DNA of 24,441 nucleotides, taken from Desulfurellales bacterium. GTDB taxonomy: Bacteria; Desulfobacterota; Binatia; HRBIN30; CADEER01. The stretch covers positions 1,663-26,103 of the forward strand of contig JBBITY010000002.1 of assembly GCA_037440565.1 (NCBI GenBank), in the 5' to 3' direction. Positions within the stretch are counted from its first letter, which is position 1; every line of letters starts with the position of its first letter. Below are positions 16,051 to 24,441 of this stretch, piece after piece. The position numbers and the translations under genes were made by a program. The notes beneath the pieces are model-generated. The model was not told the origin of the DNA, ran no database searches, and worked only from the letters and a program-made list of their open reading frames with translations.

Positions 16051-17565
16051 TCACCGCCGCTCGGGGCGCATGTGCGGAAAGAGGATGACGTCGCGGATGG
16101 ACGGCGAATCGGTCAGCAACATGACCAGTCGGTCCACGCCGACGCCTTCGCCGGCAGCCGGCGGCATTCCGTGCTCGAGCGCGCGCAAAAAGTCCTCGTC
16201 CATCGCGTGCGCTTCTTCGTCGCCGGCGGCGCGCTGTCGCAACTGGGCTTCCAGACGCGCTCGTTGATCATCCGGATCGTTGAGTTCCGAGAAGGCATTG
16301 GCCATTTCGCGCCCGGCGATGTAGAGTTCGAATCGGTCGACGAAGTGCGGCCGCTGCTCGTTGCGGCGCGCGAGCGGTGACACGGCCACCGGGTAGTGGT
16401 AGACGAACGTCGGCTGGATCAGCTCCGGTCCGGCCAGTGCTTCGAAGAGGTCCGTCAACAGGTACGCAGCGGCGCCCTCACCGTAGTGGCCTTCGTAATC
16501 CACCTTCGCGCCGAACCCAGCCCGCTGGGCGGCCGCCCTCAGAACACCGAGATCGAGAGCCAGTACGCCCTCGAGTGGTACCTGCGCCCGTTCCGCCACG
16601 TACTCGGGAAGGCACAGGCGGCGCCACGGCGGGGTGAGATCGATCGGCATGCCACCGTAGGTGAGCTGACGGCTCCCGATCACCGCATCCGCCACCCCGA
16701 CGAACAGCTCCTCGGTCAACCGCATGAGATCCTCGTAGGTGGCGTAGGCCTGATAGAATTCAAGCATGGTGAACTCGGGATTGTGCAGCGTCGACACCCC
16801 CTCGTTGCGGAACACGCGGTTGAGTTCGAACACGCGCTCGAAGCCGCCGACCAGCAGGCGTTTCAAGTACAGCTCCGGGGCGATGCGCAGGTACAGATCG
16901 ATGTCGAGCGCGTTGTGGTGGGTAACGAACGGGCGCGCCGCGGCGCCCCCGGCGACCGGCTGCATCATGGGCGTTTCCGCCTCGATGAAGTCGCGCTCGA
17001 CGAAAAACCGCCGCAGATACTGAACGATCTCGGCGCGGCGACGAAACGTCGCGCGCACGGCCTCGTTGCCGATCAGATCGAGGTAGCGCTGTCGATAGCG
17101 CGCCTCGACGTCGGTCAGGCCGTGCCACTTCTCCGGCAGCGGGCGCAAGGCCTTGGCGAGCAGCCGCACCTGCTGAGCCTCCACCGTGAGCTCGTCGGTC
17201 TTCGTGCGGAACGGGCGCCCGACGATGCCGGCGAAGTCGCCGACGTCCATCTGCTTGAACACCGCGAACGCCTGTTCCCCGACGCTGTCGCGCTTGACGT
17301 AGGCTTGCAGGCGCCCGGCGCGATCCTGGAGGTGCAAGAACGAAGCGCGGCCGAAGTCGCGCCGCGCGATCACGCGCCCTGCCACCGCCACCACCGCGCG
17401 GTTCTCCGCGAGGCGCTCGGGCGTAAGGCCGCCGAACTGGACCCCCACCTCCGCCGTCGTGTGCGTCGGGGTGAAGTCGTTCGGGAAGGCATTCACTCCC
17501 TTGGCGCGCACCGCAGCTAACTTGCGCCGCCGCGCCGCGAGCAGATCGGTTACTTCGGCGTCCAC
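16051..17565 (-). CDS. lysS: Lysyl-tRNA synthetase, class II
   Basis: N-terminal OB-fold, RYRQRYLDL, LYLRIAPELYLKRL, FRNEG, HNPEFTMLEFY, GMPP..G.GVGVDRL. GTG start. Confidence 0.98.
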   Translation of the reverse strand: MDAEVTDLLAARRRKLAAVRAKGVNAFPNDFTPTHTTAEVGVQFGGLTPERLAENRAVVAVAGRVIARRDFGRASFLHLQDRAGRLQAYVKRDSVGEQAFAVFKQMDVGDFAGIVGRPFRTKTDELTVEAQQVRLLAKALRPLPEKWHGLTDVEARYRQRYLDLIGNEAVRATFRRRAEIVQYLRRFFVERDFIEAETPMMQPVAGGAAARPFVTHHNALDIDLYLRIAPELYLKRLLVGGFERVFELNRVFRNEGVSTLHNPEFTMLEFYQAYATYEDLMRLTEELFVGVADAVIGSRQLTYGGMPIDLTPPWRRLCLPEYVAERAQVPLEGVLALDLGVLRAAAQRAGFGAKVDYEGHYGEGAAAYLLTDLFEALAGPELIQPTFVYHYPVAVSPLARRNEQRPHFVDRFELYIAGREMANAFSELNDPDDQRARLEAQLRQRAAGDEEAHAMDEDFLRALEHGMPPAAGEGVGVDRLVMLLTDSPSIRDVILFPHMRPERR

Positions 17566-17637
17566 GGCGTGCTACCCAGTCCCCGCCGCTTAACCGAGAC
17601 CTACCAGGGAGTCAAGGTGACGGCGTCGCCGGTGTTG

Positions 17638-17657
17638 TCCCAAATTCGGAATTGGGA
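17638..17657. promoter_or_regulatory. 20-bp dyad TCCCAA-N8-TTGGGA in the lysS/ttuB divergent region; candidate operator
   Basis: TCCCAAATTCGGAATTGGGA, 16/20 positions self-complementary; AT-rich against a GC-rich background. Confidence 0.4.
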
Positions 17658-17721
17658 TGCGCCGCATCGGCGCGTACGGCGCACGAACATGCACCGGGGG
17701 CTCGGTTGCTCGCCGGGCGAA

Positions 17722-17750
17722 TTGACAGCCAGAGGCCTTTCCCCTATTGT
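17722..17750 (+). promoter_or_regulatory. sigma70-type promoter for the ttuB-ttuA-trmI operon
   Basis: TTGACA (17722-17727), exactly 17 nt, TATTGT (17745-17750), then a GC-rich discriminator. Confidence 0.75.
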
Positions 17751-17761
17751 CCCGCCGCTCC

Positions 17762-17959
17762 ATGCGCATTACGGTGCTACCGCAACACAAGCAGGTGGAG
17801 CTGAGCGGCCGCCGCCGTGCGAGCGAGGTGTTGACCCAGCTCGGTTTCCTGCCCGGCACGGCCATGGTGATCCGCGGCGACCAACTGGTGCTGGAGCACG
17901 AGATGCTGGACGCAGACGACGTCGTCGAAATCCGTTCGGTGATCTCCGGGGGGAGCTGA
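17762..17959 (+). CDS. ttuB: Ubiquitin-like ThiS/MoaD-family sulfur carrier (TtuB-like), 65 aa
   Basis: MRITV...VLTQLG..PGTAMVIRGDQLV......L...DVVEIRSVISGGS; beta-grasp pattern, directly upstream of ttuA. Confidence 0.88.
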   Translation: MRITVLPQHKQVELSGRRRASEVLTQLGFLPGTAMVIRGDQLVLEHEMLDADDVVEIRSVISGGS

Positions 17960-17962
17960 GCG

Positions 17963-18970
17963 ATGGCCGCCCTGCCGCCGGAACACGCCGGCGCGCGGCA
18001 GCGCGCGGGCGAACCGAGCTCGGGCCGCCGAAGGTCGGCGCGATGGACGTTCTGCCGGCGCTGCCACGCCAAAGCCGAGGTCACGCTCCGGCATCACAAC
18101 GCCGCGTTCTGCCGCGCGTGCTTCACCTTCTACCTGCAACGGCAGGTGGAGCGCACGATCGAGAAGGAACGGATGTTCCGCAAGGACGAGCCGGTCCTCG
18201 TGGCCGTGTCCGGTGGCAAAGACAGCTTGGCGCTTTGGGATATCCTCGTCGAGCTGGGCTTCCTGACCACCGGGCTCCACTTGTCCCTCGGCATCGGCGC
18301 GTATTCGGACCAATCGACGCTGAAAGCCACTCAGTTCGCCAACGCGCGCGGGCTGACGCTGATTACGGTCCCGCTGGCGGAGGAAGGATTGGCCGTGCCA
18401 GCGGTGGCGGCATTCACCAACCGCCCCGCGTGTTCGGCCTGCGGAGCACTCAAACGTCACTACTTCGACCGGCTCGCCATTGACCGGGGTTTCCCCGTCC
18501 TGGCCACCGGCCACAATCTCGACGACGAAGCGGCGCGTCTATTGGGCAACGTGCTCCATTGGCAGATGGATCACTTGGCCCGGCAACGCCCGGTCCTGGA
18601 ACCCACCCACGAGCGCTTCGTGCGCAAGGTAAAGCCCCTGTATCGCTGCAGCGAGTACGAGACCGCCGTGTACGCGTTTTTCCGCGGTATCGACTACATG
18701 ATCGAGGAGTGTCCCAACAGTGTGGGTGCGACCCAGCTTGTATACAAGGACATGCTGAACCGGCTCGAGGCCGTCAGCCCGGGCAGCAAGTCGACCTTCG
18801 TCCGGGAGTTTCTCCGCCGGGGTCGACTGCTGGCGGCAGCGTCCCCTGTTGCGCCACCCCAGGCGTGCGAGCGCTGCGGGATGCCGTCGTACGGGGGGCT
18901 GTGCGCCTTCTGCCGGCTGGTGCGCGAAGTGGAGGTCAAACGAGAACGGCGCGCCGCCGCGCGGCCCTAG
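17963..18970 (+). CDS. ttuA: TtuA/NcsA-family [4Fe-4S] tRNA 2-thiouridine synthase (TIGR00269-like)
   Basis: N-terminal CxxC..CxxC Zn finger, PP-loop VAVSGGKDSLALW, LHLSLGIGAYS, ACSACG, ATGHNLDDEA, VKPL, EECPN, C-terminal CERC...LCAFC. It tracks Thermus TtuA motif by motif as I recall it. GGAG SD 7 nt before the ATG. Confidence 0.9.
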   Translation: MAALPPEHAGARQRAGEPSSGRRRSARWTFCRRCHAKAEVTLRHHNAAFCRACFTFYLQRQVERTIEKERMFRKDEPVLVAVSGGKDSLALWDILVELGFLTTGLHLSLGIGAYSDQSTLKATQFANARGLTLITVPLAEEGLAVPAVAAFTNRPACSACGALKRHYFDRLAIDRGFPVLATGHNLDDEAARLLGNVLHWQMDHLARQRPVLEPTHERFVRKVKPLYRCSEYETAVYAFFRGIDYMIEECPNSVGATQLVYKDMLNRLEAVSPGSKSTFVREFLRRGRLLAAASPVAPPQACERCGMPSYGGLCAFCRLVREVEVKRERRAAARP

Positions 18971-19022
18971 GGTGGTCCCGACCCGGCCGCTTCGCTGCGC
19001 TCGGCACACGACGCGAACCGCC

Positions 19023-19862
19023 ATGACGGCTTCATCCCGCGAACGGCTGCAGGCAGGGGAGAGCGTCCTCTTTATCGATCGCAAGGAACGGGAGTACCTG
19101 CGCGTCCTGCAGCCCGGGACGCGGCTGCGCGTGCGCGACGGCACCATGCAAGCCGACCACCTCATCGGCTTGGCCGAAGGCAGCACCGTTTACAACTCGG
19201 CGATGGAGCGGTTTCTCGTGCTGCGGCCCACCCTCGCAAGTCTGATTCCAAACCTCCCGCGGCGCGCCCAGGTCATCTATCCCAAGGACATCGGCCCGAT
19301 CTTGCTCTGGGGCGACATCTACCCTGGCGCGCGCGTTCTGGAAGTAGGCGCGGGACCAGGCGCGTTGACGATGGCCCTACTGCGGGCGGTGGGGCCGGCG
19401 GGGCAATTGATCTCGTATGAGGCGCGCGAAGACTTCTGCCGGATGGCGGAGGCGAACGTGCGGCAATTCTACGGTGAGGCGCCGAACTGGATCCTGAGGC
19501 GGGCGGACGCCACTCACGGGATCGACGAGCACGATCTCGATCGCCTGTTGATGGATATCCCGGAACCGTGGACGCTGTTGCCCGCGGCCGGCACCGCGCT
19601 GCGCCCGGGCGGGGTGCTGGTTGCCTACGTCCCAACCGCGCTGCAGGTCAAGCAGTTCGTCGATCAGGCTCGGAGTGGCGGCTTTGGCGCCGTCCAGGTC
19701 ATGGAAACGTTGATTCGCTTCTGGCACGTGAAGGGGCTCAGTGTGCGCCCGGAGCACCGCATGATCGGCCACACCGGCTTCATCATCAGTTGCCGCCGAC
19801 TAGCCGACAGCGGGGTGGCAACGGCCGACGCGGCGACGTTGACTCCGCGCGGCGGCGTGTAG
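19023..19862 (+). CDS. trmI: tRNA (adenine-58-N1)-methyltransferase
   Basis: HLIG..EGS.V, FLVLRP.L, PRRAQVIYPKD, VLEVGAGPGALT, SYEAREDF, MDIPEPW, YVPT..QV, VRPEHRMIGHTGFI. Confidence 0.93.
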   Translation: MTASSRERLQAGESVLFIDRKEREYLRVLQPGTRLRVRDGTMQADHLIGLAEGSTVYNSAMERFLVLRPTLASLIPNLPRRAQVIYPKDIGPILLWGDIYPGARVLEVGAGPGALTMALLRAVGPAGQLISYEAREDFCRMAEANVRQFYGEAPNWILRRADATHGIDEHDLDRLLMDIPEPWTLLPAAGTALRPGGVLVAYVPTALQVKQFVDQARSGGFGAVQVMETLIRFWHVKGLSVRPEHRMIGHTGFIISCRRLADSGVATADAATLTPRGGV

Positions 19863-19894
19863 TAGCAGAGGGCCGTTCGCGTGCGACCAGCACC

Positions 19895-20632
19895 ATGACG
19901 AAGGATGCGATCCGGCACAAGGTGTGGACCCGTGTAACCGTGGCCGGGGTGGCCCGCTTCCCTAGTCCATATGGACGCGTGCCGAATTTCACCGGTGCGG
20001 AACGCGCGGCGGGCCTGCTGTGTCAACTGACGATCTGGAAGCGGGCCAAAGTGATCAAGGTGGAGGCTGGCGCGCCCCAGCTCGCCGTTCGGCGCGCGGC
20101 GCTGCAGCAGGGGAAAATCCTTTACCTGCCGATACCGGGCCTGCGCGCGGAGCGCTGCTTCGTCGAGGTGGATCCTGCACGTCTGGGTCCGAAGGCCTGG
20201 CGCGCGGCCACGCTGCGCGGCGCGCTGCAGTACGGACGCCCGGTCGCGCCGCACGAGCTGCGTCCGGTCGATCTGGTGATGGTCGGGTCTGTCGCGGTGT
20301 CGCGCCAGGGGGCACGAGTCGGCAAGGGTAATGGCGCCAGCGATCTCGAGTACGCGTTGCTGCGGCAGGCGGGCAAGGTGCGCGAGTACACGCCGATCAT
20401 CACCACCGTCCACCCGCTGCAAGTCGTCGAGGACCGCATCCCGATGCGTGCGCACGACATCCCAGTCGATTTTCTCGTGACGCCGGATCACGTGGTCGCC
20501 GCTCCGAGTCTGTACCCGCGCCCGCGCGGCATTCTGTGGGACCTGCTACCCGACGAACGCATCCGCTCGATCCCCATTCTGCGCAAAGGGCGACGCGACA
20601 GCCGGGGAACGAGCACACCGGGTCACTTTTGA
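19895..20632 (+). CDS. 5-formyl-THF cyclo-ligase paralog, archaeal/MTHFSD type
   Basis: IRHKVW, ARFP.P.GRVPNF.GA..AA, PQ..VR..AL..GK, VDLV.VGSVAV...G.R.GKG.G.SDLE, TTVHPLQV, HD.PVD...TP. Confidence 0.85.
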   Translation: MTKDAIRHKVWTRVTVAGVARFPSPYGRVPNFTGAERAAGLLCQLTIWKRAKVIKVEAGAPQLAVRRAALQQGKILYLPIPGLRAERCFVEVDPARLGPKAWRAATLRGALQYGRPVAPHELRPVDLVMVGSVAVSRQGARVGKGNGASDLEYALLRQAGKVREYTPIITTVHPLQVVEDRIPMRAHDIPVDFLVTPDHVVAAPSLYPRPRGILWDLLPDERIRSIPILRKGRRDSRGTSTPGHF

Positions 20633-20681
20633 CCTCGCCGAGCGGGAGCGCGCCTTCGCCGTACCCCCACTCCGGACCAAC

Positions 20682-21179
20682 TCACCGCTCGCGGCGCCTC
20701 CTGCCTGACGCCCGTGCACGAGGCCGGGCGAGTTGGATCGCCACCTCGACCGCCTCGGCAGGAGTACGAGCCACGCGAACGCCTGCGACGTGCTCCCATG
20801 CGTTCAGGACGACCACAGGTCGGCCGAGTTTCAGCGCGAGGGCGATCTCTGAGGCCGTGCCGTGCTCACCCGAAAGCGCGATCACCGCGTCACCCGATGC
20901 CGCAACGATGACGTTGCGCGCATGTCCCATCCCGGTTGCCAGGGCAACCGCAATGGCGGGATGTGCCGCCGACAAATCGTAAGTCGGGAGCACACCGATC
21001 GTCAGCCCGCCGGCGCGCTTCGCACCGGAAGCGGCGGCGCCCATCACCCCGCCGAGTCCACCACACACGAGCACGGCACCGCGGCGGGCGAGCGCCGCGC
21101 CGACTGCCGCTGCGGCCCGCGCGATGGGCCGCGAACACTTCCCCCCTCCGATGACCGCTATCTGCAGGCGTCGGGTCAT
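20682..21179 (-). CDS. TIGR00725-family LOG/DprA-like Rossmann-fold protein
   Basis: IAVIGGG, LVCGGLGGVM.A...GA...GG.TIGVLP, TGMGHARN, GEHGTASEIALALKLGRPVV. Confidence 0.88.
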   Translation of the reverse strand: MTRRLQIAVIGGGKCSRPIARAAAAVGAALARRGAVLVCGGLGGVMGAAASGAKRAGGLTIGVLPTYDLSAAHPAIAVALATGMGHARNVIVAASGDAVIALSGEHGTASEIALALKLGRPVVVLNAWEHVAGVRVARTPAEAVEVAIQLARPRARASGRRRRER

Positions 21180-21361
21180 GGCTCTGCACAGTATGCTACG
21201 CGTCGGCCGTCGGCCAGAGGACGCCTCGCCCCATTTTCTCACCTGTTTGCTGCTGCGGCCGCCCTCGCGACGGAACCCGGCGAGAAATGCGGGCTGGCGG
21301 GCACGTGTCGCGCCCCAGTTGCCAGCGGCCGCCGGGTTGGATAGAGGGATCGGGACGACAA

Positions 21362-21805
21362 ATGGCGACCGTCAGGAACGAAAAGAAAGAGCGATCATGG
21401 CCAGCCATTCTGGGGTGGGGTGGCCTATTCGTCTTCGCCGGGATCTTCGCCTGGCTGATTATCAGCCAGCTCCAGTCGGCGCAGACGTGGTCTGGGCGCA
21501 AGAACGAGGCCGTGGAACTGGTGAAGAACTTCCGGCCGGGCGGCCCGAACACCGAGACCCTGTACGACTTGATCCGGGCATACTCACTCAAAGCCAAGGA
21601 ACAAGACGCCTACGTCGGTGAGTTCACCTGGGACGCGAAGCAGAAAGACGGTCCAGATTACGAGGTCACCCTGCTCTGGAAAGAGGGGGAACGGCATCGC
21701 GTCGCGGTATGGCGCGTCAACCTGGGGAGCAGGGAGATCCGTCCCCAAGGCGAGGAAGCAGCGAACCTTCCGCAGCGGGCGAAGACCGGCCTAATCGGCA
21801 GTTGA
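21362..21805 (+). CDS. Hypothetical single-pass membrane protein, 147 aa
   Basis: Basic N-tail, one TM helix (WPAILGWGGLFVFAGIFAWLII), then a soluble domain of normal composition. GAGGG SD-like element upstream. Confidence 0.75.
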   Translation: MATVRNEKKERSWPAILGWGGLFVFAGIFAWLIISQLQSAQTWSGRKNEAVELVKNFRPGGPNTETLYDLIRAYSLKAKEQDAYVGEFTWDAKQKDGPDYEVTLLWKEGERHRVAVWRVNLGSREIRPQGEEAANLPQRAKTGLIGS

Positions 21806-21895
21806 AAGCCAGATGGCCTGGTGTGGGACCGGAGGGCAGACGTTCGCGCATACCACGCCCCACGATCTGGCATCGCTGCGCAGCATCTCGGCGAG

Positions 21896-22585
21896 CTAGC
21901 GCTGGCGTGCCCGCTGCAGCTCCAGAAACCGCTGCCGCCATCTGACCGCGCGCCGGGCGTACACGCGAACGAGTTGTTCCGAACATCCGGCCAGAAAGAC
22001 ACGGGCGGCGACGACGATCACCAGCACATCGTCGGCCAGGCCCGCCAGTGCGGCGCGGTCCGGGACGAGATCGCGTCTGTAGACTCCGTAGACCATCGCG
22101 CCGGCCAGGAGCAGCTTCCTACTGACCGAGACCTTCGGCGTCAACACGAGGCGGGCATGCACGTAGAGCATGAGCGGAACGTAGTTGGCGAGGACACGCA
22201 GCCCGTCTCGGCGCCATGCGGCCACGAGCCCCCGATCGACGAGTAAGGCGACGAGCACGACGGGCACGAAGAGAAGCGCCCGCCCGAGCCATGCTCCCCA
22301 TGTTTCGGTCGAGCGCGACACCGTGCGGAAGATACGCCGGAGCCAGCGCCGAGTCCCTTTTAGCAACGCCTCGGCAGATTGACCGAGGGTCTGTTCGAAA
22401 GGCCTCCCCGTTTGGCTAACAAGTGATGCCCCCTCCCCAAGACCCCCGCTGGGCGCTAGCACGACACCCCGCGCCGCCGTGAGTCTATACCGTTCGCCGC
22501 CGCCAATGCCGGCTAGGAGCACGAGGCCGAGGATCAACACGAACATCTTTCCACTGTGATTCCCCGCCTCCATTGTCGTCACCAT
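21896..22585 (-). CDS. Membrane protein with divergent YkvA/DUF1232 C-terminal domain
   Basis: RLVLTPKV....KLLL.GAMVY....DLVPD.....GLADDVLVI plus N-terminal hydrophobic segments. Start may be 22585 or 22573. Confidence 0.65.
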   Translation of the reverse strand: MVTTMEAGNHSGKMFVLILGLVLLAGIGGGERYRLTAARGVVLAPSGGLGEGASLVSQTGRPFEQTLGQSAEALLKGTRRWLRRIFRTVSRSTETWGAWLGRALLFVPVVLVALLVDRGLVAAWRRDGLRVLANYVPLMLYVHARLVLTPKVSVSRKLLLAGAMVYGVYRRDLVPDRAALAGLADDVLVIVVAARVFLAGCSEQLVRVYARRAVRWRQRFLELQRARQR

Positions 22586-22705
22586 GCTAGAGCCGCGGCG
22601 AGAAAGTCAACTCCCGCGTCGGAGACAAGCGGATTCCACAGAACCTGCCATCGGATTGACGGTTGGGGCTTCTGATCGACGTGCCGCACGATTCGAAAAT
22701 ATCTG

Positions 22706-22721
22706 TGGCATATCGCTTGCT
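22706..22721 (+). promoter_or_regulatory. sigma54 (RpoN) -24/-12 promoter
   Basis: TGGCATATCGCTTGCT versus consensus TGGCACG-N4-TTGCW; exact GG-N10-GC spacing; intergenic, correctly oriented, 58 nt before the XRE start. Confidence 0.7.
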
Positions 22722-22779
22722 GACCCGAACCAAGCAACGACGCCAAGGCGTGGCTCTGAGATTGGAGGAAACACAAACA

Positions 22780-23028
22780 ATGGAAGACAACATGAGCAAC
22801 TTCGTCCGCCGGCTTCGGCGTCAACTCGGGATGACTCAAGAGGAGTTCGCTCACGCACTCGGGATTACCGTCGGCACCGTCAATCGCTGGGAAAACGGGC
22901 GCTTTCGCCCCAGTAAGCTCGCACGCGCCACAATCACGGAGTTTGCCCGCCGTCACGGTGTGGCCGTGAATGCTCCGGCGCCGGACGGCGGCACCACCTC
23001 ACCCGAGCGCGAAGGGCCTATGCACTGA
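22780..23028 (+). CDS. XRE-family helix-turn-helix regulator, 82 aa
   Basis: VRRLRRQLGMTQEEFAHALGITVGTVNRWENGRFRPS. GGAGG SD at 22764-22768; ATG 22792 is an alternative start. Confidence 0.92.
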   Translation: MEDNMSNFVRRLRRQLGMTQEEFAHALGITVGTVNRWENGRFRPSKLARATITEFARRHGVAVNAPAPDGGTTSPEREGPMH

Positions 23029-23083
23029 CTTGGCCGCCGAACACTTGCTCTCTCCGGGCCGCTCGACTCCGGCACTCCTCCCC

Positions 23084-23107
23084 AAGTCGGGCGGCCCGCT
23101 TTTCTTT
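23084..23107 (+). terminator. Possible intrinsic terminator after the XRE gene
   Basis: aag(t)cggg-cgg-cccg-ctt followed by ttcttt; short stem and an interrupted U-tract. Confidence 0.4.
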
Positions 23108-23139
23108 CTACTCACAGCTTGCGAGCAAACCCCTCGGGG

Positions 23140-23213
23140 TGGAGCGCCCGCTCCAGAACGGCGCGCGCGGAGGCGCGGCTCCAGTCCTGCGGGCGGGGCC
23201 AGTGCTCCCGCCC
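23140..23213. repeat. Hairpin cluster related to the lolD-bamA repeats
   Basis: tggagc-gccc-gctcca (23140-23155), ggag-gcgcgg-ctcc (23169-23182), gggcgggg...tcccgccc (23191-23213). gtgctcccgccc at 23202-23213 is identical to 14059-14070. Confidence 0.6.
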
Positions 23214-23261
23214 TTCCACCCGTGTTCCTGCCTACCCCCACCTGGATTTCTTCACACGCTC

Positions 23262-24441
23262 TCAGCCCCCCGGCTCGATACGAACAATAATACTTGCCGG
23301 CAAGCCCGGCTGTCCGAGACTGTCGCGGACGCGTGCGGTAACCCTGGTGTCGCCGGGAGGAAAAGCCATCTCTATGCCGACTCCGACGGACGTGCAGAAC
23401 TGCACCGTCGAAGCGAGGTTGACAAAACGCTCTTCTTGAAAGCGGTTCTTCGTACACGCGTCGGTCGACGCCCGGCGGGCATCGAAACGACAAGTCAGGT
23501 CATTGACCGCGTTGGCGGCGAATTGGGAGCCTCCGAAAAGAGGCGGATCCACGGCCGGCACGCCGCCGATGAAGTCCGGGGTTTCCCCTCGATCGCATAC
23601 CGCCGTACTGCCATTCCCGAGTGGGCGGGACACCACCATCTGGAGGTCAGGCAGGACGGTCGGGTCGGAAGGGCTCCAATTGAACGTGGAGGTCGCAACC
23701 GGCTTGCCGCTGGGGCCCGGTCGGGCCTCGAGCACGATAAAGAACCCCTGCGGCAGAGTGCGGCGGAAGATGGGTGTGCCGTCCTCGGCCGAGATTGGCG
23801 TCACCACGATCCCAAACGCATTGGCGATCCCGAAGTAGGTAATTTGCGGTCCGATCGTCTGAGGAGTGCGCGTCACTGACGGAGTCGACGTCGGCGTTCG
23901 GCTCGGCGTGGGTGTCCGCGTGGCGGTCCGCGTGCGCGTGGGCGTGGCACTAGGCGTCGAAGTCTTCGTCGGCTTGGTCGTTGGAGTGTTCGTGGCGGTG
24001 CGGGATTCCGTAACGGTTCGCGTGGCCGTCGCGGTCGGGGTCGTGCTAGCGGTCCGGGTGCTGGTTGCCGACGCGGGCAGCGGCGAATGAGTTTCCGTCG
24101 GTCGCGGTGTGACGGTCGGCGTGACGGTAGGGGTGGATGTCGCCGTCCGACTCGATGTTGAGGTGGGCGGGGGAGCGGTATCGGTCGCTGTGGGCGTGAC
24201 CGTGCGCGTAGCCGTTGTGGTTCGCGTCGGGGTCCGCGTGTGCGAGGCCGTAGCCGTACGGCTGGCGGAAAGCGTGCGCGTCACACTTGGCGTTGAGCTG
24301 GCCCCACCGGTCGGCGTGCGAGACGCGGTGGATGTTTTCTGCACCGTTGCGGTTCGGCTCGGCGTGGGTGTTCGCGTAGCGGTCCGCGTGCGCGTGGTCG
24401 TCCGAGTCACTGTGGGCGGACGTGTTCGGGTTGCAGTGCGC
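23262..24441 (-). CDS. 3' part of a large Thr/Pro/Arg-rich (mucin-like) probable surface protein with a ~200-aa 4-Cys C-terminal domain; 5' truncated
   Basis: The frame is open to the right edge (RTATRTRPPTV...), so GTG 24410 is not the true start. (T-x)n linker, then GPQITYFG...VCD...TCRF...ACT...QFCT...FPPGDT.VT.RVRD..G..G....IIVRI. Confidence 0.85.
   Translation of the reverse strand, partial: RTATRTRPPTVTRTTTRTRTATRTPTPSRTATVQKTSTASRTPTGGASSTPSVTRTLSASRTATASHTRTPTRTTTATRTVTPTATDTAPPPTSTSSRTATSTPTVTPTVTPRPTETHSPLPASATSTRTASTTPTATATRTVTESRTATNTPTTKPTKTSTPSATPTRTRTATRTPTPSRTPTSTPSVTRTPQTIGPQITYFGIANAFGIVVTPISAEDGTPIFRRTLPQGFFIVLEARPGPSGKPVATSTFNWSPSDPTVLPDLQMVVSRPLGNGSTAVCDRGETPDFIGGVPAVDPPLFGGSQFAANAVNDLTCRFDARRASTDACTKNRFQEERFVNLASTVQFCTSVGVGIEMAFPPGDTRVTARVRDSLGQPGLPASIIVRIEPGG
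23896..24397. repeat. 46-bp direct repeat inside the Thr-rich linker (23896-23941 and 24352-24397)
   Basis: 44/46 identical, 456 nt (152 codons) apart; each encodes TRTRTATRTPTPSRT. Confidence 0.85.

Follow-up and report, generated by a model that had tools for sequence, protein, structure and literature searches.

The subject of this analysis is a gene for a relative of 5-formyltetrahydrofolate cyclo-ligase (5-FCL) in a stretch of 24,441 nucleotides (hereafter the window; C2:1663-26103, G+C ~67%) from a Desulfurellales bacterium of the class Binatia, whose genome is a metagenome-assembled genome (MAG) of 77% completeness in 579 contigs. The open reading frame (ORF) starts with ATG, encodes a protein of 245 amino acids, and is the fourth gene after ttuB, ttuA, and trmI (Table 1), so that a preliminary description of this DNA was right to see it embedded in a tRNA-modification operon. 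Gaps of 3, 49, and 32 nt separate the four genes, no terminator-like site was found on the plus strand within the four-gene block, and the promoter candidate ahead of ttuB is the sole sigma70-like site within positions 17400-21400. This arrangement suggests that ttuB, ttuA, trmI, and the paralog are co-transcribed, with lysS lying upstream of the operon in divergent orientation. Among public RNA sequencing runs, none was found to contain the locus.

The gene for the putative small sulfur carrier TtuB occupies the same position in all linked loci, with its stop codon 3 nt ahead of ttuA, and its product matches the Pfam families ThiS (E 0.024) and SAMP2 (E 0.054), neither of which reaches its cut-off. 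The TtuB-like carrier ends in GGS in the window (17945-17959), in GGA in L031 (6096-6110), and in GG in L034 (6150-6161), so removal of a cap would be needed before thiocarboxylation in some genomes. TtuA combines a LIM-type zinc finger at its N-terminus with a PP-loop domain; its best NCBIfam match is the TtuA equivalog NF049949 with 252 bits against a cut-off of 450, and U54 is its putative target position. As start of trmI we chose the ATG of MTASSRERL with the help of ortholog gene calls (270-298 amino acids).

Table 1. Features of the operon and its downstream surroundings, in positions of the window
Feature	Position	Strand	Basis or remark
Sigma70-like promoter candidate, directly 5' of ttuB	17722..17750	+	TTGACA-17-TATTGT, 10/12 matches; consensus match only
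ttuB, 65-aa ThiS/SAMP2-like sulfur carrier, C-terminal Gly-Gly-Ser	17762..17959	+	Translation, ortholog position
ttuA, TtuA/NcsA PP-loop tRNA 2-thiolase	17963..18970	+	Pfam TtuA_LIM_N (PF22082) and ATP_bind_3 (PF01171)
trmI, tRNA m1A58 methyltransferase (GCD14/TrmI family)	19020..19862	+	PF08704 E 2e-23, PF14801 (TrmI-like_N) E 1.7e-10
COG0212/MTHFSD-type 5-FCL paralog, remodelled pocket (E57-A58-G59, G82, A148)	19895..20632	+	Pfam, motifs, fold, tree
SLOG cluster-4/TIGR00725 (LOG-like) gene, convergent with the paralog, outside the operon	20682..21242	-	Pfam LDcluster4 E 1.3e-40; TIGR00725 120.8 bits, over cut-off
SepH-like/DUF3071 gene	21287-21805		Within block after operon
DUF1232 gene	21896-22585	-	Within block after operon
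382-aa ORF, no family matches	23262-24410	-	Within block after operon

Pfam family PF01812 (5-FTHF_cyc-lig) spans the first 197 residues of the protein (E 1.8e-22, 80.6 bits), which fails both the bacterial 5-FCL equivalog TIGR02727 (29.3 bits, cut-off 84.9) and NF007661 (16.8 bits, cut-off 343). Contig C4 of the source genome has another PF01812 gene, which passes TIGR02727 with 147.7 bits, so that the gene of the window is a true paralog next to a canonical 5-FCL gene. Close homologs are 245-amino-acid proteins of Candidatus Binatia MAGs, which are called “5-formyltetrahydrofolate cyclo-ligase” where they are given any name, and full-length orthologs share the N-terminus MTKDAIRHKVW with the protein of the window. 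Its AlphaFold2 model (mean predicted local distance difference test score, pLDDT, 94.6; predicted template modelling score, pTM, 0.90; input alignment of 56 sequences) superposes closely on the Swiss-Prot models of Arabidopsis COG0212 (Q9SRE0; template modelling score, TM, 0.94, 39% identity) and vertebrate MTHFSD (TM 0.91-0.93, 36-39% identity), compared with TM 0.51-0.58 and 15-21% identity for the canonical 5-FCLs Escherichia coli YgfA, Bacillus subtilis YqgN, and those of yeast and Arabidopsis mitochondria. A fold search of the PDB returned canonical 5-FCLs at the top (TM 0.47-0.55), followed by eIF2B subunits and ribose-phosphate isomerases, and neither sequence nor fold search found a solved structure of the COG0212/MTHFSD paralog type there. 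With canonical 5-FCL as outgroup, a maximum-likelihood tree nests the protein in a clade inside the COG0212/MTHFSD family, with eukaryote-type members branching elsewhere. Sequence and model together identify it as a COG0212/MTHFSD-family protein that has a predicted 5-FCL-like fold and is not a 5-formyltetrahydrofolate (5-formyl-THF) cyclo-ligase, and the earlier assignment to the archaeal and eukaryotic paralog type instead of the YgfA type is thereby confirmed.

Canonical 5-FCL (MTHFS/YgfA/YqgN, EC 6.3.3.2; PDB 1ydm, 2jcb, 1sou, 1wkc, 3hy3-3hy6) shares with the protein of the window the superfamily fold (hhalign probability 97%), an N-terminal K/R helix, a G-x-G-x-G loop, and acidic residues. 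The two differ in that identity is 15-25% at TM ~0.5, the protein of the window is ~50 residues longer through a GRxPNF insert and a C-terminal extension, and the folate-contacting motifs are not conserved. The COG0212 “5-FCL-like” proteins of Arabidopsis (At1g76730/Q9SRE0) and Haloferax volcanii are much closer relatives that show the same GR[IV]PNFxGAxxAA motif, a G-rich loop, and a coexisting canonical 5-FCL, and in the case of Arabidopsis the same fold over the full length. However, these proteins conserve N57, P58, D59, R82, and the aromatic residue at 148 that are lost in the window, their gene partners are thiamin genes instead of tRNA T-loop modification genes, and the Arabidopsis protein carries a plastid transit extension that is lacking here. 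In work by Pribat et al. from 2011, COG0212 is said to be essential for Arabidopsis embryo viability. The 5-FCL-like domain of vertebrate MTHFSD (Q2M296 and orthologs) also superposes well, but MTHFSD adds a C-terminal RRM to what is a bare domain in the bacterial protein, its sampled representatives keep the canonical pocket motifs, and it has no reported link to tRNA modification. Its connection to RNA comes from the RRM and from reported RNA binding (PMC8935057), while that of the protein in the window comes from the operon.

The protein is strongly basic (K+R 15.9% of residues, net charge +19, isoelectric point [pI] 10.9). Basic charge is a property of the COG0212/MTHFSD family as a whole, with a median pI of 9.7 and values above 9 in 94% of 84 sequences, but the Binatia clade is more basic than its family (pI 10.2-11.3). 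A library search with the protein returned 2321 cluster representatives at E <= 0.001, many of them longer and eukaryote-like. The top match, P0125, has 1810 amino acids, matches the paralog domain in seven separate places, and resembles a tandem array, which may be either a gene-model artefact or a genuine multi-domain protein.

No fewer than 22 other loci or genomes have the order ttuB-ttuA-trmI-paralog with differing flanks, and linkage to trmI is thus not confined to this genome. This order is present in twelve loci of Binatia-type MAGs from the genome collection (L003-L013 and L015), in G076 and G143, two more class genomes from the species collection (loci L036 and L037), in L031-L035, where ETF/cyclase or NUDIX/isochorismatase genes take the place of lysS/macB as flanks, in L051, where a fast-evolving copy with 43% identity adjoins sigma70/DnaJ, and in six of 80 metagenome loci (L061, L063, L073, L078, L084, L086). 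These 80 loci were retrieved with patterns from 12 closer sequences, so the sample is biased to members with canonical motifs. In the analysis at large, greedy ORF picking mis-called some genes in high-GC loci (e.g., a false fusion in L016), and such rows were excluded. A maximum-likelihood tree of 109 sequences unites the 22 linked copies that it includes with the unlinked copies in L105 and L134 in one Binatia clade (SH-aLRT, the Shimodaira-Hasegawa-like approximate likelihood ratio test, 97). Because all linked copies form one clade, the phylogeny indicates a single origin of the linkage in the common ancestor of the Binatia clade, followed by inheritance while the neighboring genes changed. 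G076, which belongs to the same order as the source genome, has a second, deep-branching paralog copy (L039, C2:510725-511420) with 46% identity that is not linked to ttuA or trmI.

Within part of this clade, the putative ligand pocket has been rebuilt. The protein of the window has the motifs GRVPNF (residues 27-32), KVEAGAPQ (55-62), and GKGNGASDLE (143-152). The first of these belongs to the GR[IV]PNFxGAxxAA motif, which is intact (GRVPNFTGAERAA, residues 27-39); in the 56-sequence alignment, P30 of this motif never varies, and conservation is 90% or higher at F32, G34, A38, and A39. By contrast, the other two deviate from the family consensus, which in a 74-sequence alignment reads K-x-N-P-D-x-P-Q at 55-62 (N 53/74, P 56/74, D 63/74, Q 62/74) and G-K-G-x-G-[YF]-S-D-L-E at 143-152, where Y or F at position 148 (63/74) is replaced by Ala in the window and the glycines, K144, D150, L151, and E152 are kept. 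Conservation of N57, P58, D59, and K144 is 93%, 96%, 99%, and 99%, respectively, in 84 sequences that fall outside the clade. The deviations at these near-invariant positions thus go far past what chance drift would be expected to produce, and both departures singled out in the preliminary description, KVEAGAPQ in place of KxNPDxPQ and a glycine-rich loop without its usual aromatic residue, hold up as real.

The altered motifs are confined to part of the linked clade. Its basal subclade (L037, L061, L063, L073, L078, L084, L086) keeps both K-[VIL]-NPDAPQ and GKGGG[YF]xDLE, but the derived subclade (15 rows, support 100) shows a stepwise erosion of the two motifs, and the nine-member group of the window has lost N57, P58, D59, R82 (fixed as Gly), and the aromatic residue at 148, with K144R in most members. 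Because basal operon-linked copies are canonical, the altered motifs are best read as a later change in a subclade and not as a signature of tRNA association, and the loss of K-x-NPD-x-PQ is derived and no argument against family membership by descent. A rule by which altered motifs accompany the tRNA operon was considered and rejected on the same grounds.

Outside the clade, conservation reaches 80% or more at 86 positions. The group of the window differs at 15 of these, and the differences cluster in loops 57-59, 78-82, and 144-148, which were located by the beta strands that precede them in the DSSP string and not by 3D coordinates. The replacements in the three loops are mostly smaller residues (G, A, S) that vary between close relatives, with three to four residue types at each of positions 58, 59, 144, and 146. 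Residues of the ATP type are retained (K3, R7, R141, G143, G145, G147, D150, D188, D192). A profile-profile alignment with the canonical 5-FCL of the same genome (probability 97%) pairs the E-A-G-A-P-Q of the NPD region with the canonical D-N-E-V-P-T and the A-S of the [YF]-S position with the canonical F-Y. The acidic residue of the canonical E-x-x-T region and the aromatic pair after the G-x-G-x-G loop are folate-contacting residues on the substrate side in MTHFS structures. Between close relatives the paralog is the slowest-evolving gene of the operon, with a nonsynonymous divergence (dN) of 0.09-0.15 compared with 0.14-0.22 for TtuA and 0.18-0.30 for TrmI; toward the basal subclade its dN is 0.32-0.36 and equal to or above that of TtuA. 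Only dN was compared because synonymous divergence (dS) is saturated (~1.0-1.7), and the TtuA pair of L009 with a nonsensical dN of 2.47 was excluded. This pattern points to a single episode of change at the ligand site that was followed by strong constraint on the remaining protein.

Across a phylum sample of 151 genomes, TtuA is present in 41 and the paralog in 12, with both in 8, and in five of these eight genomes the two genes lie on different contigs. TtuA accompanies the paralog in 8 of 12 genomes as compared with 33 of 139 genomes that lack it (odds ratio 6.4, p = 0.003), and outside the own class of the window the odds ratio is 4.1 (p = 0.046); neither value is corrected for kinship, and the co-occurrence signal is therefore weak.

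Elsewhere the family is fused to several RNA-related domains, namely to RRM in five representatives, to zf-CCHC in one, and to the RNA 2'-phosphotransferase Tpt1/KptA in Candidatus Alkanophagales archaea, where an N-terminal COG0212 domain and a C-terminal Tpt1/KptA domain share a single ORF. This last fusion (P0251) is found in three independent assemblies (L137:4001-5263, L138:467-1729, L139:249-1511), and the archaeal gene contexts are spot samples only. It adjoins prefoldin and SRP54-family genes and falls into four 90%-identity clusters, one of which is a 465-amino-acid form at 52% identity. A single fusion joins the family domain to amine oxidase. In the 80-locus sample, the commonest tight partner of the paralog is the alpha/beta-hydrolase Abhydrolase_1 in an actinobacterial (Solirubrobacterales-like) clade (L090, L091, L104, L106, L110-L112, L115, L121, L125, L126, L129, L132, and L135, plus L016). 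Two genera of a single family within the phylum of the source genome carry a gene for an O6-methylguanine-DNA methyltransferase (Ogt/MGMT) immediately ahead of the paralog and in the same orientation (L042:2637-3152, minus strand; L044:4302-4781, minus strand), with an overlap in one case, and in a Blastocatellia MAG the gene for a radical SAM protein on the same strand ends 7 nt ahead of the paralog (L014:3732-4796). TruD, FtsJ, and tRNA_bind genes were considered as conserved partners and rejected, with each of them seen once and TruD not recurring among the 80 metagenome loci.

Co-folding gave a hint of a physical partner. A single job, in which TtuA, TrmI, and the paralog had separate alignments, was run three times with three controls and scored 0.35 compared with 0.02 for the best control, which is weak support. 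Of 80 solved complexes, 58 attain the same mark, as do 2 of 110 mismatched pairs, but at scores of 0.60 or less only 7 of the 80 solved complexes do so, together with both of the passing mismatches. The predicted contact involves residues 84-90, 181-182, 205-211, 229, and 249-254 of TrmI and residues 41-50, 165-167, 192-193, and 200-206 of the paralog, whose contact positions are clade-specific (e.g., A202, where most other members have E), although relatedness alone could explain this. Of TrmI and TtuA, which the earlier description had named as partners to co-fold, TrmI receives weak support, and TtuA lies outside the predicted contact.

On balance, we give a probability of roughly 40% to the reading that the paralog is a lineage-specific, ATP-binding accessory protein of strongly basic character that works on or together with tRNA as the T-loop matures, following the remodelling of its pocket. 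Such a protein would still bind ATP but no longer handle the ancestral small ligand of its family, and it would act on or with tRNA while m1A58 is formed by TrmI and s2T54 by TtuA and TtuB. TrmI would be its likeliest protein contact, and the paralog would be an optional helper of this lineage and not a core component of the pathway; judged from weak and indirect support, a tRNA-binding or cofactor role is possible. In Thermus, thiolation by TtuA is accelerated by m1A58 (PMC6418473), which makes a shared T-loop module biologically coherent. The m5s2U54/m1A58 network of Thermus thermophilus (TrmFO, TtuA-D, IscS, TrmI) resembles the window in having TtuB, TtuA, and TrmI, with TrmFO encoded elsewhere in the genome of the window, but it differs in that the window adds, in Binatia only, a fourth gene of the 5-FCL-like type and caps its TtuB with one residue (GGS).

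Several observations weigh against this reading. The established Thermus pathway lists no such protein (PMC6418473), and the linkage to the operon reflects one evolutionary event in one class, so that the conserved gene order may partly reflect inheritance. The suggested tie to the tRNA operon stands as real and conserved but is limited to a single clade and dispensable there, as G110 of the same class (100% complete) has ttuB-ttuA-trmI without the paralog. Conversely, L105 and L134 within the clade have the paralog without ttuA or trmI, and in the phylum sample 33 of 41 TtuA-positive genomes lack the paralog while four genomes with the paralog lack TtuA. The family is found elsewhere in unrelated and often small-molecule contexts, with an alpha/beta-hydrolase directly 3' of the paralog and within a few bases in 14 of the 80 metagenome loci, HisI/HisG downstream of family members together with a divergent NUDIX gene, further contexts with MFS and FMN reductase or with tautomerase/HpcH, and a single fusion to GTP cyclohydrolase II. 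One of the three co-folding runs scored 0.00, and so did the control in which TtuA was replaced, even though the claimed contact is with TrmI and not with TtuA. TrmI is a tetramer and was modelled as a monomer, so the contact surface may normally be buried. Finally, published work links the family to thiamin, describing it as “not a 5-FCL enzyme” that is implicated in thiamin metabolism and has an unknown biochemical function (PMC3223725, PMC4120688).

The main rival takes up these last points and has a substantial, if minority, chance of being right: the paralog may be a passenger of the operon that performs the small-molecule job of its family, such as salvaging, repairing, or detoxifying a heterocycle (e.g., one related to thiamin or pyrimidine) with the use of ATP, that came to be co-transcribed by historical accident in Binatia, and whose pocket changed as the protein turned to a different small substrate. 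The mostly metabolic or transport contexts sampled outside Binatia (alpha/beta-hydrolase, HisI/HisG, NUDIX, MFS with FMN reductase, tautomerase/HpcH), the literature on thiamin and on the lack of 5-FCL activity, and the single origin of the linkage with loss of the gene in G110 all agree with it, as do the retained ATP-type residues that would be expected of an active enzyme. However, the four-gene order survives divergence to ~57% identity (43% in the fast-evolving L051) with flanks fully replaced, the variability of pocket positions 58, 59, 144, and 146 would be unexpected if these residues formed a site for one specific small molecule while the protein evolves slowly, and the basic charge and RNA-domain fusions across the family point away from a purely metabolic role. 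A housekeeping task within the pathway, in which the paralog would remove or recycle a by-product or modified nucleotide (e.g., from turnover of m1A- or s2T-containing tRNA) with help of its LOG-like and NUDIX neighbors, appears unlikely to us. It would account for the SLOG cluster-4 gene that faces the paralog tail-to-tail in the window as well as in L009, L034, L036, L037, L073, and L086, and also in L134 despite the lack of ttuA and trmI there, for NUDIX genes that closely precede ttuB in L034 and L051 and are oriented away from the paralog, in divergent fashion, in ~11 metagenome loci, and for the Ogt/MGMT alkyl-repair genes mentioned above. Yet a convergent orientation does not make two genes co-transcribed, many linked loci (L003-L008, L010, L011) have no SLOG gene, both MGMT cases come from one genome family, and the data name no substrate. 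Far less probable still is that the paralog serves the sulfur carrier by activating, uncapping (at Gly-Gly-Ser), or recycling TtuB, an idea that would also explain the association of the family with thiamin through ThiS-type carriers. The varying TtuB termini imply a processing step in some genomes and the family is linked to thiamin gene clusters, but its fold is unlike those of peptidases or E1 enzymes and nearest to 5-FCL, eIF2B-like proteins, and ribose-5-phosphate isomerase, eukaryotes and many genomes that lack TtuA also encode family members, and the co-folding job, from which TtuB was left out, put the paralog on TrmI.

The preliminary description had also considered a supply of folate or one-carbon units to TrmFO for the methylation of U54. 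We regard a role in folate metabolism, in which the protein would either be such a supplier for m5U54 formation or a genuine 5-formyl-THF cyclo-ligase, as the least probable explanation of all. Its premise is sound insofar as the folate-dependent TrmFO is probably the m5U54 enzyme of the class, with TIGR00137 over cut-off in G076, G110, G143, and G038 and a partial match at a contig end in the genome of the window. Because no TrmA was found over cut-off in the class genomes searched, the class probably makes m5U54 with the folate-dependent enzyme, and the protein of the window has its fold and ATP-type residues in common with 5-FCL. However, the genome already encodes a canonical 5-FCL, trmFO is not linked to the operon and is equally present in class genomes without the paralog (G110 and G038), and the paralog has lost the residues that align to the folate-contacting motifs of the canonical enzyme, including the aromatic residue at 148. 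Moreover, TrmFO uses methylene-THF and not methenyl-THF, which is the product of 5-FCL. The supply of TrmFO is thus the part of the earlier proposal that finds no support, and members of the family have been reported to lack 5-FCL activity and to fail to complement a ygfA mutant (PMC3223725).

A broader version of the preferred reading, by which the COG0212/MTHFSD family as a whole would consist of ATP-dependent, RNA-directed (and probably tRNA-directed) enzymes instead of small-molecule vitamin enzymes, strikes us as rather doubtful. If it held, the Binatia operon, the archaeal Tpt1/KptA fusion, the animal fusions to RRM and zf-CCHC, and the basic charge would be independent traces of one class of RNA substrates, and the subclade of the window would be a variant with a changed or enlarged nucleotide pocket.

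The convergent SLOG gene is still paired with the paralog in L134 (2515-2958), where ttuA and trmI are missing and an acyl-CoA dehydrogenase gene lies upstream. Past the operon, a block at 21287-24410 of the window is present in most close relatives (Table 1). Of the sampled words from window positions 17700-20700, a fraction of 0.90 was found in one subsurface-metagenome run and 0.07-0.10 in three hot-spring metagenome runs, and a warm habitat would fit the thermophile-associated s2T54 machinery.

Members of COG0212/MTHFSD occur in all three domains of life, and the human protein is tied to studies of amyotrophic lateral sclerosis. An operon with two T-loop modification enzymes opens a second concrete line of enquiry into the function of this family, and together with the archaeal Tpt1/KptA fusion and the basic charge it suggests that tRNA binding or modification is worth testing. 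A role in the T-loop, if true, would be new, as the m5s2U54/m1A58 network of Thermus has no such component (PMC6418473). If the link to the operon is merely historical, these genes should still not carry the annotation of 5-formyl-THF cyclo-ligase. The Binatia clade provides a natural experiment in which operon-linked orthologs have either an intact or an eroded ancestral pocket, and because both states occur among them, their comparison could separate catalytic from binding functions. The rebuilding of the pocket is in this way a new handle on the function of the family that comes from a single lineage.

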